Shown here one piece after another: positions 1 to 7,492 of a DNA stretch of 14,821 bases; the stretch's first letter is position 1; each line of letters starts with the position of its first letter. The position numbers and the translations under genes were made by a program. The DNA is from a virus (lineage: Duplodnaviria; Heunggongvirae; Uroviricota; Caudoviricetes): the IMG/VR virus record IMGVR_UViG_2636415906_000004. The stretch is one strand, 5' to 3'. A model generated the notes under the pieces. That model was not told where the DNA came from, did not search any database, and was given only the letters and a program-made list of their open reading frames with translations.

Positions 1-852
1 GTGATTGCTTTACTACTGATTCCCATTCTTGTTAGCGGCTACATTTTAGTAGTCGCTAATTTATATCATTACTATCAATTGCATCGATACGATGGCCAAC
101 TTTTGTATATAAAAGTTGCAGCTCATGGAACAATGAGTGTTGTTTTTGTGATTTTAGCAGCAGTAGTAGTGAAATATTTCTTTCCTAATTTTCACCCAAT
201 AGGAATGCTTTCAGATATTCTTAATGTCAAGAAAATAATAAATGGTAATAAAGCTGAAACATGGCTTGCTTTGATTTCATTATCATCAATTATATTTTCT
301 TTAATTTGGGTGGCTTTAGTTTGGTTAAAAAATATGTTTTTTGGTTTCTTTTGTGAAAAGAAACATCATGAAAACATCTTTCATGCTAAGAAACTTAGAG
401 TATTAAGAAAAACAATTTCTAACTCAACTTTGGATAGTATGCTTTTAGATGCATTAGAAAGCAGTCCTAAAGAACCGATTCTAATAACCTTATCTTCACG
501 GAAAGTTTATGTTGGTATAGTTAATGGAATTCAAGAACCAACAGAAAGCGAAGCGCCAAATAGTTATATATCAATTTTCCCTATTATGTCAGGCTATAGA
601 GATAAAGATACTCTTTCCATCACCTTTACGAATTCATATCCATCAGAAGTACTAGTGAGTTCAGCTATTACAATGGACTCCCAAAAAAGGCATAAAGTGA
701 AAAATATGGATATAATATTTCGTGCTGATGAAATTTCTCATCTTTCATGGTTCGATTTTGAACTATTTGAACAAGTCAATGATTCGATGAAGCACGATAC
801 CATTGACTTGCGAAGTGAGACTTACTCAGGGGAAACTAGCGAAAATTTTTAG
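1..852 (+). CDS. hypothetical AT-rich membrane protein (3 predicted N-terminal TM helices, ~170-aa C-terminal soluble domain); 5' end may lie upstream of the window
   Basis: Frame is open from the window edge (first codon GTG) to TAG at 850-852. Hydrophobic segments IALLLIPILVSGYILVVANL, MSVVFVILAAVVV and WLALISLSSIIFSLIWVALVWL. About 30-38% GC in sampled lines. Converges on the int 3' end with a 17-nt overlap. No family recognised. Confidence 0.5.
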   Translation: MIALLLIPILVSGYILVVANLYHYYQLHRYDGQLLYIKVAAHGTMSVVFVILAAVVVKYFFPNFHPIGMLSDILNVKKIINGNKAETWLALISLSSIIFSLIWVALVWLKNMFFGFFCEKKHHENIFHAKKLRVLRKTISNSTLDSMLLDALESSPKEPILITLSSRKVYVGIVNGIQEPTESEAPNSYISIFPIMSGYRDKDTLSITFTNSYPSEVLVSSAITMDSQKRHKVKNMDIIFRADEISHLSWFDFELFEQVNDSMKHDTIDLRSETYSGETSENF

Positions 853-3542: not shown

Positions 3543-4367
3543 TCAGGCGGTGAAAGTACCAATAAAGGTTTCTACTTTGCTGTCCTTGAATTTCTCAACA
3601 AGCAGATCACGAAATTCGTTAGCCATTTCTTCCTGCACCGCCTCCAGCTGAATAATGCGCAGAACCAGTACAGGACGATCGCCAGTGATAATGCTGAGGC
3701 GTAATTTAAACGGACGTTCTTTCAGACCTTCAAACGGAACGCATTTAAATTCAAATGCCACTGGCATAATGTCTTTGGTCTTCGCTTCGACAGACTCCAT
3801 CAGGGAGCGTTTGCCGCTGAAGTCATTATCTTCAAAATCAGCGGTCTGGTTTGCTTCAATCGTGATTTTACGGACAGCCGCAGCCGCTTTTGTTGCCTGA
3901 ATGGCGTCACCATTAGCATCAAAGCCCACAAGGTAGTCGGCCCAGTCTTCAATCCATTCTGCCAGTGACTTCTGGGAGTTACGCTCGCCGTTAACAGACA
4001 ACAGAGCAGAGAACGGTGCTGTCTTTTTCAGTTTGAGAGTGGCGGTGTTATCTGCGTGACCTGGTTCATCAATAGTACCCAGGTTAAGCACACTGACGGC
4101 ACGCATATTATCGGCATCGATAAAGCAGCGGGTGCCTTCATCTGCAAGAACTTTAGAATAACGGGTAAAGTCATCGATGCTGGCAGTGGAAAGCGCACCA
4201 CGGAAACGGAAGCGATTTAAATTAAATTTTTCCAGATCATGAATGCGGAAATTCTCAGGCAATGCCACAGCATCGGCACCAATCTTACTGATAATTTCAT
4301 TAACACCCTGAGCAGAAATAAGGGCATGGATTTGATTAATTGCGGTTGCGTCTAAGTTCTGAGACAT
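3543..4367 (-). CDS. yfdQ: YfdQ-like prophage protein (274 aa), function unknown
   Basis: 274-aa ORF with ATG start and GAGGA SD 6 nt upstream. Size and neighbourhood match K-12 YfdQ (recollection). Confidence 0.65.
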
Positions 4368-4432
4368 AATAAGTCCTCACTATATAAAGATATTCAGTGA
4401 TGAGATAAATAATCAGTTTATTACGAACGATA

Positions 4433-4795
4433 TTAACGACCTGCTGCGCGGAGTTTTCCGTCAGGTTCACCGGCAAGAGTCAGTAATTGTCCCTGGTCTT
4501 CCTGCAGAATAGTCAGGCGACCACCGCGATTGACATACATCGGCGTTTCGGTGGTGTCTTCTTCGGAAATTTTCCCGCGGTTAGTCGGGCGAACATATGA
4601 GAGTTTGTGTTTGATTTTCACACGGTTCTCATCAAACGGTTCGATTTCCAGATTGAGTGAGACCTTCCCTTTGGTTTTCGTGTTCATCACACCGGAAGCG
4701 ACTTCACTGAGAACTGCGCCGATTTTGGTTTCAAATACGCCGCCGTCCAGCTCCCCGATAAATGCCTGCACATCAGTACTGCGTTCGCTAGCCAT
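4433..4795 (-). CDS. yfdP: YfdP-like prophage protein (120 aa), function unknown
   Basis: Start placed at the ATG of MASERSTDVQ..., which has a GAGGAG SD 7 nt upstream. The 106-codon N-terminal extension in the track ORF (to 5113) is R/C/P-rich and not protein-like. Confidence 0.6.
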   Translation of the reverse strand: MASERSTDVQAFIGELDGGVFETKIGAVLSEVASGVMNTKTKGKVSLNLEIEPFDENRVKIKHKLSYVRPTNRGKISEEDTTETPMYVNRGGRLTILQEDQGQLLTLAGEPDGKLRAAGR

Positions 4796-4843
4796 TTTGC
4801 TGCTCCTCATCATATCGACCCTGCAAGGCCGATTAGTTTCTCC

Positions 4844-4932
4844 ACAAAACAGAGAAGAACACCTGCGGTGGCAGCCGCCCGGATGGATTGGGTTATGAGC
4901 CCGTCGTCCGGTGATGCTCTTCTCTGTTTTGT
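4844..4932. repeat. 15-bp perfect inverted repeat (acaaaacagagaaga / tcttctctgttttgt) enclosing a 59-nt GC-rich spacer with internal stems
   Basis: Arms at 4844-4858 and 4918-4932 are exact reverse complements. The spacer contains ccgga/tccgg and gcgg/ccgc stems. Lies in a non-coding stretch. Confidence 0.55.
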
Positions 4933-4939
4933 AAAAAGA

Positions 4940-4978
4940 GCGGTACCAGCCGGAAGCAAGGGTACAAACTGGTACCGC
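4940..4978. repeat. 10-bp perfect inverted repeat (gcggtaccag / ctggtaccgc) with 19-nt loop
   Basis: Exact reverse-complement arms at 4940-4949 and 4969-4978, each containing a GGTACC palindrome. Followed by a nested gccagg...cctggc stem (4977-5031) around a ccggg-tgcct-cccgg hairpin. Confidence 0.5.
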
Positions 4979-5298
4979 CAGGACTACACACAGCATAAAG
5001 TTGTGGTGCCGGGTGCCTCCCGGTGCCTGGCGAAGGTTGCACACCAGACGGGTGGGTATCCACAGAAGGTCGACTGTCAGCCTCAACCTTAACCCGCGTG
5101 CGCTGAGCCGCATTCACCACAACGCTAAGGATTCTCTCTGGTTGAAAATACTTAGCTGTTATGTGCCTGCTTTTAGCCACATCAGGCGAGGTGGACCTGG
5201 TTATTCCCCAACAACAAGGAGCGGTGCTTACGGAAAAGCAGCAAGCGCGCTGCATCGGGTGAAGAGTGGTATCTGTCAGGGAATTACGTGGGGGCTTA

Positions 5299-5679
5299 AT
5301 GAGTAATAAATATTGCCAGGCGCTGGTGGAACTGCGGAACAAACCAGCCCATGAACTGAAGGAAGTGGGCGATCAGTGGCGCACGCCGGATAACATTTTC
5401 TGGGGAATTAACACCCTGTTTGGCCCGTTTGTTCTGGATCTGTTCACTGACGGTGATAACGCCAAATGTGCTGCGTATTACACGGCGGAAGACAACGCGC
5501 TGGCGCATGACTGGTCAGAACGTCTTGCGGAGCTTGAAGGTGCTGCCTTTGGTAATCCCCCATACAGCCGCGCCAGTCAGCATGAGGGGCAATACATCAC
5601 CGGCATGCGTTACATCATGAAACATGCCAGTGCCATGCGTGATAAGGGTGAAGGAACTATGTCAGCATTGCCATGGTAA
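5299..5679 (+). CDS. phage N6-adenine DNA methyltransferase, N-terminal fragment (probable truncated pseudogene)
   Basis: NPPY catalytic motif (AFGNPPYSRASQ) typical of amino-methyltransferases. The ORF stops 24 codons after the motif while a different frame continues into the Q-like sequence. Confidence 0.55.
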   Translation: MSNKYCQALVELRNKPAHELKEVGDQWRTPDNIFWGINTLFGPFVLDLFTDGDNAKCAAYYTAEDNALAHDWSERLAELEGAAFGNPPYSRASQHEGQYITGMRYIMKHASAMRDKGEGTMSALPW

Positions 5680-5971
5680 GGGAGAAGTCAGCACCGCGTG
5701 CAGAGGGTGTAAGGGTAAAGGTATTGTCCTGGATGAAAAAAGAACCCGGCTTCATGGCACGCCTGTTTATAAGATTTGTGGGCGTTGCAGTGGAAACCGG
5801 TTTAGCCGTTTACCAACCACACTGGCGCGGCTTCATGTCCAGAAGCTGGTACCAGACCTGACGGATTATCAGTGGTACAAAGGATATGCAGATGTCATTG
5901 ATAAACTGGTTACAAAGTGCTGGCAGGAGGAAGCTTACGCTGAAGCACAATTGAGAAGGGTGACGAGATAA
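5624..5971 (+). CDS. lambda-type Q antiterminator, C-terminal zinc-binding half only (N-terminally truncated, probable pseudogene)
   Basis: CQHCHGKG...CRGCKGKG...ICGRCSGNRFSRLP...LVPDLTD...KCWQEE...VTR aligns in pattern with the lambda Q C-terminus (CRDCHGTG...ECGRCKGVGYSRMP...LIPNLTQ...QCHKEE...AVTR) as I recall it. The ~100 N-terminal residues are absent. Confidence 0.6.
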   Translation: MPVPCVIRVKELCQHCHGKGEVSTACRGCKGKGIVLDEKRTRLHGTPVYKICGRCSGNRFSRLPTTLARLHVQKLVPDLTDYQWYKGYADVIDKLVTKCWQEEAYAEAQLRRVTR

Positions 5972-6003
5972 GCGATTTTCGCCGAAGATAACGACATAAT
6001 ACT

Positions 6004-6032
6004 TGTATTTCTCAAAAAATATGGATAAGATT
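6004..6032 (+). promoter_or_regulatory. candidate pR'-like sigma70 promoter (TTGTAT - 17 nt - TAAGAT) just downstream of Q
   Basis: Hexamers and spacing seen by eye. Position relative to Q and to the downstream terminator matches the lambdoid pR'/tR' layout. Confidence 0.25.
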
Positions 6033-6079
6033 TTCTCAACGATGGGGCTTGTGTATCTATCGTTGAACAATTTTTACGA

Positions 6080-6103
6080 CCTCGCTATTGCGAGGTTTTT
6101 TTA
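6080..6103 (+). terminator. rho-independent terminator (cctcgc-tatt-gcgagg followed by a T-run), tR'-like
   Basis: 6-bp perfect GC-rich stem, 4-nt loop, then a T-run of about 8, read directly from the sequence. Confidence 0.6.
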
Positions 6104-6139
6104 TGGTTTTTTTCTATTCAATCTACATCAAAATCAATG

Positions 6140-6148
6140 TGTTATAAT
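6140..6148 (+). promoter_or_regulatory. extended -10 promoter element TGtTATAAT upstream of the moron genes
   Basis: Perfect TGnTATAAT located 38 nt upstream of the ATG at 6186. Confidence 0.45.
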
Positions 6149-6185
6149 GTTTTCTGTAAAACAACATTAAAAACAGGAGAACATT

Positions 6186-6455
6186 ATGAAACTGACCTCT
6201 ATCCATCTTGAAATACTACGTCGAGTGAATGAATTGCAGCCAAAGGATTCTAGAATTCAGGCTGCATCATTACCTCATCTCTCAGCAAAAGAGGTTAACT
6301 TTGCTATTTCAGATCTTGCTGATATAGGTTTTATCGATGTTATACGAAGCAAATCTGCCGAAGGTGGATTGATTGCTAATGAGATAACGTCAAAAGGTTT
6401 TGCTTTTTTGAGTGAGATTGGCGCTGAAAAAAATTCATCGATGAGCACTCATTGA
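6186..6455 (+). CDS. hypothetical small protein (89 aa), first gene of the AT-rich moron
   Basis: ATG preceded by AGGAG at 8-nt spacing. AT-rich. No TM segment. No family recognised; a winged-helix fold is only a guess. Confidence 0.6.
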   Translation: MKLTSIHLEILRRVNELQPKDSRIQAASLPHLSAKEVNFAISDLADIGFIDVIRSKSAEGGLIANEITSKGFAFLSEIGAEKNSSMSTH

Positions 6456-6469
6456 TTTCTGCTTCAATC

Positions 6470-6487
6470 GGCTGCCAATTGGCAGCC
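6470..6487. repeat. 18-bp perfect palindrome ggctgcc-aatt-ggcagcc after the 89-aa gene (hairpin or dimer-binding site)
   Basis: Exact palindrome 15 nt after the stop codon. No U-tract follows. Near-identical to the hairpin at 7493-7510. Confidence 0.45.
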
Positions 6488-6520
6488 TAAACTGTAAAGT
6501 GAATTTAAAATCGCCTACAA

Positions 6521-6548
6521 TTGATGCTTAAATTTTGTTCTGTATCAT
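6521..6548 (+). promoter_or_regulatory. candidate sigma70 promoter (TTGATG - 16 nt - TATCAT) for the 268-aa gene
   Basis: Hexamers read by eye in the 165-bp AT-rich spacer between the two moron genes. Confidence 0.3.
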
Positions 6549-6652
6549 CTGCAGGTTTAGGGATATCACAGTAGCTTTCTGACAAGAAGAGTTCTTTTCT
6601 TCTACCAATGAAGTGGTTATGTTAACCTGCGCTAAATCGAGACTGGTGCGGA

Positions 6653-7459
6653 GTGGAATCGAAAGTGTCATATTTTTACAGAAGCAAGAATATTTCAGGT
6701 GTTTCTATAAATGAAGATAGCTTGATTAGCTTAAGCACGGCAATTGTCGAACGCTGCGTTAAAATGAATGAGCAAGCTCAAAAGGAAAGTAGGGAAGTTT
6801 GTGCTCAATGTGTTTTTTTTATTTTGTTCGATGGTAAGGGGTATAAAGTTGATTCTATCGGTGAGCTTGTGAAATACTTTAGACAGGCCACTAGGATTGA
6901 TCAAATAAATTTTACTATTGAAACTTATCAAAGTCGACAGTCTAACAGGATGAATGGATCTTGGATGGAGCTACGAATTGATGAGAGGAATTCAAATAGC
7001 AGCACAATGATTGTAGCATCGGAAGATAATGAGTGGGTTGACTCGTTATGGATTACGATTCAGGATTTACTTAACAAGTGCAAAAATAAATTTAGATTTT
7101 TTAGAACAGCTTGGACTATGTTAAGTATCCAGATTTCAGGTGTGACAGTTGGCTTTTTGCTTAGCTTATGGACAGCCTCAAAACTGGCGCCAAAACTATC
7201 AATCGATGGTGCATTTGCTTTATCATTTATTTGTATCTTTATTTTGTTTTCGAACTTATGGAGCTTTGCTATTCCATTAATAATTAAGCTTATCGACTTT
7301 TTGTTTCCTAGTGTTAAGTTTGTTATTAATGGTAAAAATTACTTTCACTGGAGTGTCCAGGCTATAATTGGAGCGATTGCCAGTGCGGTTATATTGTATT
7401 TTATTAGCTCCATGTTGCTTTTTGCATTAGAAATGTTAAATAGCATCATTAAGAAATAG
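6653..7459 (+). CDS. hypothetical membrane protein (268 aa): ~150-aa N-terminal soluble domain plus 3 C-terminal TM helices; second gene of the AT-rich moron
   Basis: Hydrophobic segments TMLSIQISGVTVGFLLSLWTA, GAFALSFICIFILFSNLWSFAIPLII and AIIGAIASAVILYFISSMLLFALEML. About 25% GC in sampled lines. Start is GTG at 6653 with poor SD spacing, so the true start is uncertain. No family recognised. Confidence 0.6.
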   Translation: MESKVSYFYRSKNISGVSINEDSLISLSTAIVERCVKMNEQAQKESREVCAQCVFFILFDGKGYKVDSIGELVKYFRQATRIDQINFTIETYQSRQSNRMNGSWMELRIDERNSNSSTMIVASEDNEWVDSLWITIQDLLNKCKNKFRFFRTAWTMLSIQISGVTVGFLLSLWTASKLAPKLSIDGAFALSFICIFILFSNLWSFAIPLIIKLIDFLFPSVKFVINGKNYFHWSVQAIIGAIASAVILYFISSMLLFALEMLNSIIKK

Positions 7460-7492
7460 TTAATGAATTAGTTATAATTACATCAATTCTAT

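Follow-up and report, generated by a model that had tools for sequence, protein, structure and literature searches.

The stretch examined here, positions 4796 to 5298 of a 14,821-nt Caudoviricetes sequence (IMG/VR record IMGVR_UViG_2636415906_000004, referred to in full as the window), lies between the gene yfdP and a truncated dam gene. It contains a non-coding module of ~320 nt on the minus strand (5156-4836), which in intact relatives is placed between the early-left promoter PL and the first early-left gene, here yfdP. The module is made up of a structured RNA core of ~125 nt, a GU-rich single strand, an intrinsic terminator, and a Y-shaped hairpin of 89 nt (Table 1). STnc100 and PasD, two Hfq-associated small RNAs of prophages, are related to this core, which has diverged from them. 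A degraded prophage beside a tRNA-Pro gene of Escherichia coli NC19 matches the window at 100% identity. The stretch itself shares 98-99% identity with the viable phages SfIV, SfV, and SfII, 89.5% with the 'ymfH' region of the K-12 prophage e14, and 77% with Salmonella phage ST64B; among 5426 complete E. coli genomes, 2791 had at least a part of it.

In every intact relative (SfV, SfIV, ST64B, mEp460, and Shiga toxin 2 (Stx2) phages were compared), the stretch is on the early-left strand, downstream of the repressor gene and upstream of yfdP-, yfdQ-, or yfdR-like genes, which are followed by xis and int. By this position, it is the leader of the minus-strand PL operon. SfV carries a PL-like near-consensus promoter (TTGACA-16-CATAAT) directly after the cI terminator, and in ST64B, mEp460, and Stx2a-WGPS2, TTGCA...GCAA operator repeats are followed by a leader of ~330 nt before the RNA. 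A first-pass annotation, made from the letters of the window, had described a GC-rich, non-coding stretch upstream of the early operon. Its start at 4796 is correct, as the yfdP start codon occupies 4795-4793. The stretch does head the minus-strand early-left operon, but it is no functional upstream region of plus-strand genes, and its GC content is raised only modestly (0.52-0.56, compared to 0.44-0.50 in the flanks).

Table 1. Features of the stretch and its neighbours, from right to left in window coordinates
Feature	Position	Strand	Sequence or remark
PerC-family regulator gene, 3′ remnant	5221..5298	+	Prokaryotic Genome Annotation Pipeline (PGAP) on the identical NC19 locus; collinear with SfV orf40-dam
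Pre-RNA sequence still collinear with SfIV	5157..5220	-	blastn
P0 hairpin, 5′ leader	5124..5156	-	GCUAAG...CUUAGC; minimum free energy (MFE) fold
STnc100-like RNA core, ~125 nt	5000..5123	-	five helices and pseudoknot
P1	5123-5115 with 5008-5000	-	GUUGUGGUG / CACCACAAC
Junction	5114-5112	-	AAU
P2	5111-5096	-	GCGGC-UCAGC-GC(A)CGC
P3	5095-5092 with 5053-5050	-	GGGU / ACCC
P5	5049-5025	-	
Pseudoknot	P5 loop 5039-5033 with 5090-5084	-	CAACCUU / AAGGUUG
P6	5023-5009	-	CCGGG-AGGCA-CCCGG
GU-rich single strand	4982..4995	-	UGCUGUGUGUAGUC; between core and terminator
Intrinsic terminator	4933..4978	-	10-bp G+C-rich perfect stem 4978-4969/4949-4940, 19-nt loop, UCUUUUU 4939-4933
Y-shaped 89-nt hairpin	4844..4932	-	basal stem of 20 bp, 4932-4913/4863-4844; two apical hairpins
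Leader end before yfdP	4796..4843	-	conserved GGAGAAAC 4843-4836; small hairpin 4831-4816; yfdP ribosome-binding site GAGGAG 4808-4803
yfdP	4433..4795	-	first early-left gene downstream of the module; phrog_204

Several perfect inverted repeats had been noted in the stretch, and all were found where they had been placed: (i) a 15-bp repeat (arms 4844-4858 and 4918-4932) around a 59-nt spacer; (ii) a 10-bp repeat (4940-4949 and 4969-4978) with a 19-nt loop; and (iii) a CCGGG-TGCCT-CCCGG hairpin (5009-5023), flanked by GCCAGG (4977-4982) and CCTGGC (5026-5031). The arms of the first can be extended to 25 nt at 84% complementarity and form a 20-bp stem once minus-strand G.U pairs are counted. For the proposed third stem, GCCAGG/CCTGGC, the complementarity is real and pairs the 3′ arm of P5 (CGCCAGG, 5032-5026) with the foot of the terminator (CCUGGCG, 4982-4976) over 7 bp. 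Among the three lineages inspected, however, it is not conserved in ST64B or phiES15, and it is therefore at best an alternative pairing. A fourth perfect pair of 9 bp (5000-5008/5115-5123) had been missed; it closes the RNA core and is its most important helix.

The structures are more stable than expected by chance. Minus-strand RNA from 5160 to 4925 folds at -92.7 kcal/mol (z -3.62, none of 200 shuffles being as good), whereas z is only -2.09 for the plus strand of the same stretch, and minus-strand RNA from 4985 to 4790 folds at -87.2 kcal/mol (z -6.62). The G.U pairs of the 89-nt hairpin exist in the minus-strand reading only. As both the G.U pairs and the fold scores favour one strand, the stems point to a structure of RNA, not of DNA.

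The prophage small RNA STnc100 was originally noticed in a set of RNAs bound to Hfq. Together with PasD, to which it is related, it belongs to the prophage-encoded small RNAs of Salmonella and pathogenic E. coli, and both associate with Hfq (bioRxiv 10.64898/2026.05.13.724894). Strain EDL933 expresses 11 STnc100 copies, whose ribosome coverage is low; a Northern blot confirmed one of these (PMC5331693). An Rfam scan of the stretch at the gathering threshold gave no match; the kinship to STnc100 was seen only in a scan by E-value. There, the STnc100 model (RF02076) matched 4931-5153 on the minus strand over model positions 1-206 of 206 with a score of 44.6 bits and E-values of 3.1e-8 (900 nt searched) and 5.1e-7 (entire window), and the terminator of the model aligned onto the 10-bp repeat. 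The corresponding scores were 39.5 bits for SfV, 38.4 for SfIV, and 35.1 for ST64B.

For the fold study, 120 viral loci and 13 genome loci were collected by a motif scan and yielded 85 distinct copies from Escherichia, Shigella, Salmonella, Cronobacter, Lelliottia, Pseudescherichia, Buttiauxella, Pantoea, and phage P1. Formal covariation counts were made for helices P1, P2, and P6 only. In the MAFFT alignment of the subfamily, the variable middle was out of structural register; P3, the pseudoknot, and P5 were therefore tested by parsing and shuffling instead of column counts. The extension of helix P1 covaries across the 85 copies; the first pair outside UGGUG/CACCA is G-C in 33, A-U in 25, G-U in 9, and a non-pair in 2. 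Within the subfamily of the window, three P1 pairs are changed on both sides, and none of 500 shuffles reached the observed covariation score. The copy in phage P1 has a compensated closing helix (GUUGCGGUG/CACCGCAAC). Read from the sequences, P2 retains the same geometry across subfamilies with all five of its pairs exchanged (GCGGC..GC-A-CGC, CCCCC..GG-A-GGG, CCUUUC..GAAAGG; loops UCAGC in the window, and UGUGC and UAAGC in canonical copies), and is invariant within the subfamily of the window.

The pseudoknot comprises at least 6 bp in 71 of 75 distinct cores, representing 36 sequence classes; the same criterion held for 26% of non-cognate pairings and 16% of shuffled loops. The joint topology of P3, pseudoknot, and P5 fits all 11 lineages of the window's subfamily in spite of their differing sequences (P3 variants include GGGU/ACCC, GGGG/CCCC, GAUGA/UCAUC, GGCA/UGUC, and GGCGU/ACGUC), with z values of 2.3-4.4 per lineage against 200 shuffles, from Escherichia to Pantoea and phage P1. 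The sequence of P6, a 5-bp stem and pentaloop, is the same throughout, unlike that of the other, covarying helices, and this pattern suggests that P6 is recognised by sequence. The pseudoknot is absent from the Rfam structure line of RF02076, and the RNAalifold model of the 2026 preprint on STnc100 and PasD cannot show it.

An experimentally mapped allele of this RNA is available. sRNA-17 of E. coli K1 RS218 is a 193-nt RNA of an mEp460-like prophage, determined by 5′/3′ rapid amplification of cDNA ends and Northern blot (PMC7719688). Its authors found no Rfam relative (PMC7719688); the link to STnc100 is made in the present analysis. We positioned sRNA-17 by mapping its published 'full length' primers, CGTTGTGGTGAATGCGCAGGCTGATGCGCGAAA and AAAAGAGCGGTACCAGCCGGAAGCAAGTGTAC (PMC7719688), on the mEp460 locus, which was then aligned to the window. 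The primers extend from the 5′ strand of P1 to the same terminator, and sRNA-17 is therefore an allelic variant of the window RNA: its 5′ end according to the primers is CGUUGUGGUGAAUGCG, and its 3′ end is the terminator that corresponds to the one in the window. The suggestion of a structured non-coding RNA in the first-pass annotation is thus supported, on the minus strand, by covariation-backed helices and a pseudoknot, the near-threshold STnc100 match, and the mapped allele.

In the mEp460/Stx2a variant to which sRNA-17 belongs (L129 2353-2545, L130 2355-2545), the P2 loop GGCUGA is complementary to the P6 loop UCAGC, and this loop pair might replace the pseudoknot through a kissing interaction. 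Folding of the mEp460-type variant by MFE gave a structure no better than those of shuffles (z 0.36).

The two subfamilies differ in where they lie. Canonical STnc100 copies have a strong promoter (TTGACA-17-TAAATT) that ends ~7 nt before UGGUG; they are located 180-278 nt downstream of the antiterminator gene Q (PF03589), or 106 nt after stx2B, and 190-370 nt upstream of holin genes (PF04971, PF16931). This is the position of the PR′-tR′ leader. Copies of the window's subfamily occupy PL leaders, the leader of the phage P1 ban operon just before tciA, and a site before kil in phiES15. The genes downstream of the family are mutually unrelated (yfdP, yfdR, RdgC, xis, kil, tciA). A hairpin with a U-run follows 123 of 132 family copies, its end lying at a median of 48 nt after P1. 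The family thus marks the starts of phage operons, usually with a terminator.

Three further observations concern these copies. The core copy of phage P1 is unannotated (L006 2503-2626, corresponding to AF234172 ~70079-70202); it lies in the leader of the ban operon, with upl on one side and tciA on the other, lacks a terminator, and stops ~25 nt before the start codon of tciA. On several viral contigs (L013, L024, L027, L037, L053, L072, L103, L123), two canonical STnc100-type copies occur on the same strand, 270-960 nt apart, and differ in their variable regions and pseudoknot sequences. A T-arm-like hairpin, GUCCG-UUCAAUU-CGGAC, is located ~15-35 nt upstream of P1 in PL leaders of ST64B-type, Stx2a, and Buttiauxella phages (L035, L130 2321-2341, L135/L137/L138), and L130 contains a second one, CUGG-UUCAAUU-CCAG. 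This hairpin and the acceptor/T-arm-like stack of P1 and P6 prompted a check of the window and eight related leaders with ARAGORN, which detected neither tRNA-like nor tmRNA-like genes.

Downstream of the core, the strand UGCUGUGUGUAGUC is kept in copies from E. coli, Salmonella ST64B, Cronobacter phiES15, and Pantoea with differing cores. It is a candidate seed or Hfq-contact region; no complementary site that could serve as a target in cis was found in the window. The terminator differs very little from the mapped 3′ end of sRNA-17. The hairpin behind it stands on an A-tract and a U-tract; its length is constant at 89-90 nt, and it accompanies the RNA before yfdP, a gene for a YfdR-like nucleotidase, RdgC, and xis. 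An RNAalifold analysis of 11 variants showed that pairing in the apical hairpins is kept with different sequences in K-12 and ST64B; covariation is limited, with 3 pairs changed on both sides. The hairpin is possibly a second terminator or an RNase III site. Upstream of the core, a -10-like TAAGTA (5154-5149) lies within P0, 25 nt before P1, where the promoter scan was empty; the motif TAAGT(G/A)/TAATGC recurs ~8 nt upstream of P1 in other members of the subfamily.

The fold and its covariation, the non-coding nature, the operon position, the terminator consensus, and the deletion junction described below come from the present analysis, and transcript ends and accumulation are taken from the literature on close relatives. 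On this basis, we consider it probable that the module gives rise to a terminated small RNA of ~200 nt and that its terminator attenuates transcription into the early-left genes. Transcription starting at PL, or at a weak promoter immediately before P1, would enter the module on the minus strand and stop at the terminator (4978-4933), releasing the small RNA. The RNA may then act in trans through its GU-rich single strand, presumably with the help of Hfq. The same terminator, backed by the 20-bp hairpin, would attenuate transcription into yfdP-yfdQ-yfdR...xis-int. A deletion mutant of sRNA-17 showed a strong increase of yfdP (log2 6.6), and yfdR was also upregulated (PMC7719688); the rise of yfdP is consistent with a gate before this gene. 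The identity of the RNA alone is held with higher confidence than this full statement of a mechanism.

Several points weigh against this interpretation. The STnc100 score of the window is below the gathering score of 47. Association with Hfq and trans targets are known from the literature on canonical STnc100 and PasD only, not for the window's subfamily. Because the sRNA-17 mutant retains a chloramphenicol resistance (CmR) cassette, polarity could account for the increase of yfdP and yfdR. A scan for sigma-70 promoters upstream of the RNA in the window found none, and PL itself is deleted; transcription of the window copy is therefore only predicted. Finally, copies without a terminator, which abut a ribosome-binding site and have a long P1, occur in phage P1 (before tciA), Lelliottia, Pseudescherichia, and Buttiauxella, and suit a cis-acting leader better than a free small RNA.

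The last point leads to the main rival explanation, in which the core is a cis-acting leader element that works on the polymerase or on downstream terminators, with the small RNA as a by-product. Possible analogues are the put RNA of phage HK022, ~70 nt with two stem-loops that suppresses termination by itself (PMC9378689), and a nut site, bound through the invariant P6 by a phage factor. We regard this as rather unlikely, although a number of features speak for it. The family is promoter-proximal in operons that need read-through of terminators (the PL leader, the segment between Q and holin, and the P1 ban leader), the unrelatedness of the downstream genes would suit such an element, and so would the invariant P6 stem and pentaloop and the copies that stand directly before a gene. 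In addition, only short open reading frames (ORFs) and no recognised N-like gene were seen in the leaders of ST64B and mEp460, where no search with a family library was made. However, both the canonical copies and sRNA-17 are present in the cell as discrete RNAs that have been terminated (PMC5331693, PMC7719688), which speaks indirectly against suppression of its own terminator by the RNA alone, as in put. Moreover, the two stem-loops of put differ from a 125-nt pseudoknotted core with five helices, the phage records that blastn matched did not include HK022 (the put sequence itself was not aligned directly), and late operons already have Q.

A broader proposal is likewise only tentative: STnc100, sRNA-17, and the 'ymfH' RNAs may form one widespread class of pseudoknotted leader RNAs at the starts of terminator-controlled operons of temperate phages (PL leader, PR′ leader between Q and holin, and P1 ban leader), with a function that would go beyond base pairing as a small RNA. 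The fold and P6 might then act in cis on elongation, termination, or the fate of the mRNA via a partner from phage or host.

A riboswitch-like gate appears improbable to us. In this model, the folded core would permit the terminator, whereas in the unfolded core the 3′ arm of P5 would pair with the terminator foot as an anti-terminator. The 7-bp complementarity described above would allow this in the window, and other SfV-type copies retain it with one G.U pair; the compact pseudoknotted junction with its invariant unpaired bases also resembles an aptamer. On inspection, however, the pairing shrinks to 4 bp in ST64B, and to 4 bp outside the terminator in phiES15. The terminator begins 10-20 nt after P1 without overlap, some copies have no terminator at all, and the Rfam scans matched no known riboswitch family.

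That the stretch is a decayed protein gene is more improbable still. PGAP annotates 4810-5120 on the minus strand as a frameshifted hypothetical protein, which would be a doubly frameshifted homologue of YmfH of e14; in K-12, ymfH is intact with 103 codons (L002 5002-5313). Furthermore, plasmid-expressed ymfH is listed as a trigger of the retron-Sen2 toxin RcaT (bioRxiv 10.1101/2020.06.22.160242). Yet the frame is intact in K-12 only: two frameshifts are required in SfV, SfIV, and the window, different ones break it in ST64B, and these three phages are viable. The 33 substitutions within 'ymfH' between the window and K-12 are distributed over codon positions 1/2/3 as 10/12/11, with no excess at the third position, and the two 1-nt indels both fall in RNA loops. 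YmfH belongs to no Pfam family, its PHROG match is partial only and covers the hairpin region, and the start of the ORF coincides exactly with helix P1. Compared to K-12 e14, 0 of 20 positions are changed in the terminator stem and 8 of 19 in its loop, 2 of 40 in the basal stem of the long hairpin and 14 of 49 in its apical part, and 3 of 124 in the core; rates are thus 0-5% for stems and 29-42% for loops. The annotated ORF is without coding constraint, and the substitutions track the RNA structure, so the earlier statement that no frame in the stretch is protein-like holds. As the ymfH clone would express the RNA core in sense orientation too, the effect on RcaT could be borne by the RNA instead of the protein. 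Our literature search on ymfH found no study at the RNA level.

A DNA-level feature (repeats of the enterobacterial repetitive intergenic consensus (ERIC) or repetitive extragenic palindromic (REP) type, a cruciform or protein-binding palindrome, or a sequence made by the deletion) is the least credible reading: the 15-bp and 10-bp palindromes are perfect and a deletion junction does lie inside the interval, but compensatory changes keep the pairing while the sequence shifts, and the stems, 240-375 bp away from the junction, are unchanged in undeleted phages. The resemblance to ERIC or intergenic repeat unit (IRU) elements suggested earlier was not confirmed, as neither of the ERIC end sequences used as queries matched at up to 3 mismatches and the copies elsewhere are prophage leaders, not dispersed repeats.

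The deletion itself can be placed by comparison with SfIV and SfV. Window positions 4300-5220 are collinear with SfIV (L003 4505-5425), and positions 5219-5302 match SfIV 9573-9656 and SfV (L004) from 9918 onward (blastn). Collinearity on both sides therefore sets the junction at 5219/5220. By this comparison, ~4.1 kb with cI, cro, and the replication genes are missing from the window prophage. The recombination scar that had been considered is real insofar as this deletion ends inside the interval, at least 95 nt to the right of the RNA core; the stems, by contrast, are no scars: they are intact conserved sequence left of the junction, identical in undeleted phages, and the viable phages SfV, SfIV, and ST64B have this sequence as well. 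Positions 5221-5298 are unrelated to the RNA module: this PerC tail was joined to it by the deletion and is followed by the truncated dam gene (ATG at 5299).

Other features of the prophage were recorded in passing. According to PGAP on the identical NC19 locus, the prophage has a second internal deletion, in which the truncated dam gene (5299 to ~5649) is joined without a gap to a C-terminal fragment of antiterminator Q (~5648-5971). Islands of low GC content (0.27-0.38) at window positions 1-850 and 5972-7500, within a phage backbone of ~0.5, contain hypothetical ORFs (1-852, 6186-6455, and 6653-7459) and resemble inserted morons. A weak Rfam match to 'Bacillus-plasmid RNA' (763-810 on the minus strand, 26.9 bits with a cut-off of 31, E = 0.026), located where the ORF ending at 852 overlaps the integrase gene, is probably due to chance. 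In SfV (L004 7987-8175) and ST64B (L005 7731-7919), both on the plus strand, strong Rfam matches to isrK (64 bits) and then C4 antisense RNA (80-82 bits) fall inside the annotated protein genes orf37 and sb41, respectively. This pair looks like a P1-type c4/ant-like immunity module of the right operon and is deleted from the window.

The module is not a new category of element, as prophage small RNAs of the STnc100 type are already known as a kind and one allele has been mapped experimentally. What appears to be new is (i) the recognition of the 'ymfH' or hypothetical-protein stretch in SfV-type prophages as an allele of sRNA-17 and as a relative of STnc100 that scores below threshold; (ii) the pseudoknot and the P3 variant; and (iii) the consistent leader position. 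Half of the complete E. coli genomes carry at least part of the stretch, annotated as a hypothetical or frameshifted protein, and the RNA reading corrects this annotation. It also ties together three separately named entities (STnc100/PasD, sRNA-17, and ymfH), and the family gains a pseudoknot and a second subfamily. For the window, the endpoint of the deletion that inactivated the prophage is now fixed. The analysis further points to a possible control point, consisting of an RNA and a terminator, for early-left expression including xis and int, which would be relevant to SfV-, ST64B-, and Stx2-type phages without a recognisable N antiterminator. The gating of early-left transcription is thereby raised as a testable question.

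Among known systems, sRNA-17 shares with the window copy the locus and strand between the immunity region and yfdP, the first 16 nt (CGUUGUGGUGAAUGCG), the 3′ strand of P1, a near-identical terminator, the 89-nt hairpin, and the downstream gene. In contrast, the interior of ~100 nt differs (P2 GCGCA-GGCUGA-UGCGC, P6 CCGG-AGAUCAGCA-CCGG), and alignment with the 193-nt RNA is confined to the first ~16 nt, the 3′ strand of P1, and the terminator. The upstream ArcA-binding fragment reported for sRNA-17 is absent from the window, and the window copy would be a 'degenerative' homologue in the terms of that study (PMC7719688).

The put RNA of HK022 is likewise a structured RNA just past an early promoter and before terminators, in phages without a recognisable N; the window RNA is longer and pseudoknotted, and its relatives terminate efficiently. 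DicF of the Qin prophage resembles the window RNA as a small RNA in an early-left-type operon upstream of a host-affecting gene, with local similarity in the 3′ terminator part (UGGCGGUACCAGUUU); the DicF model (RF00039) reached 15.7 bits at 4938-4992 on the minus strand (cut-off 48, E = 1.7). Unlike the window RNA, DicF is only 53 nt long, is processed by RNase III and RNase E, and has no structured core. StxS and the lambda 6S RNA are short leader transcripts from the late promoter PR′ that are released at the first terminator of the operon. They share with the module the principle of a promoter-proximal RNA and a terminator gating an operon. There is no kinship in sequence or structure, and PR′ is where some canonical STnc100 copies sit, not the window copy.

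STnc100 differs from the window RNA in several respects. The latter has an extra helix, P3, which encloses the 5′ strand of the pseudoknot, a different single strand before the terminator, and the additional 89-nt hairpin; it is located in an early-left leader and not between Q (or stx2B) and the lysis genes, and no strong TTGACA-17-TAAATT promoter abutting P1 was recognised in it. The two have in common the closing helix UGGUG...CACCA with its AAU junction, the geometry of P2 (2+3 bp, a bulged purine, and a UNNGC loop) with all five pairs exchanged, the pseudoknot between the P5 loop and an upstream strand, an identical P6 directly 5′ of the closing strand, a terminator shortly downstream (within ~50 nt), and their occurrence in lambdoid prophages.

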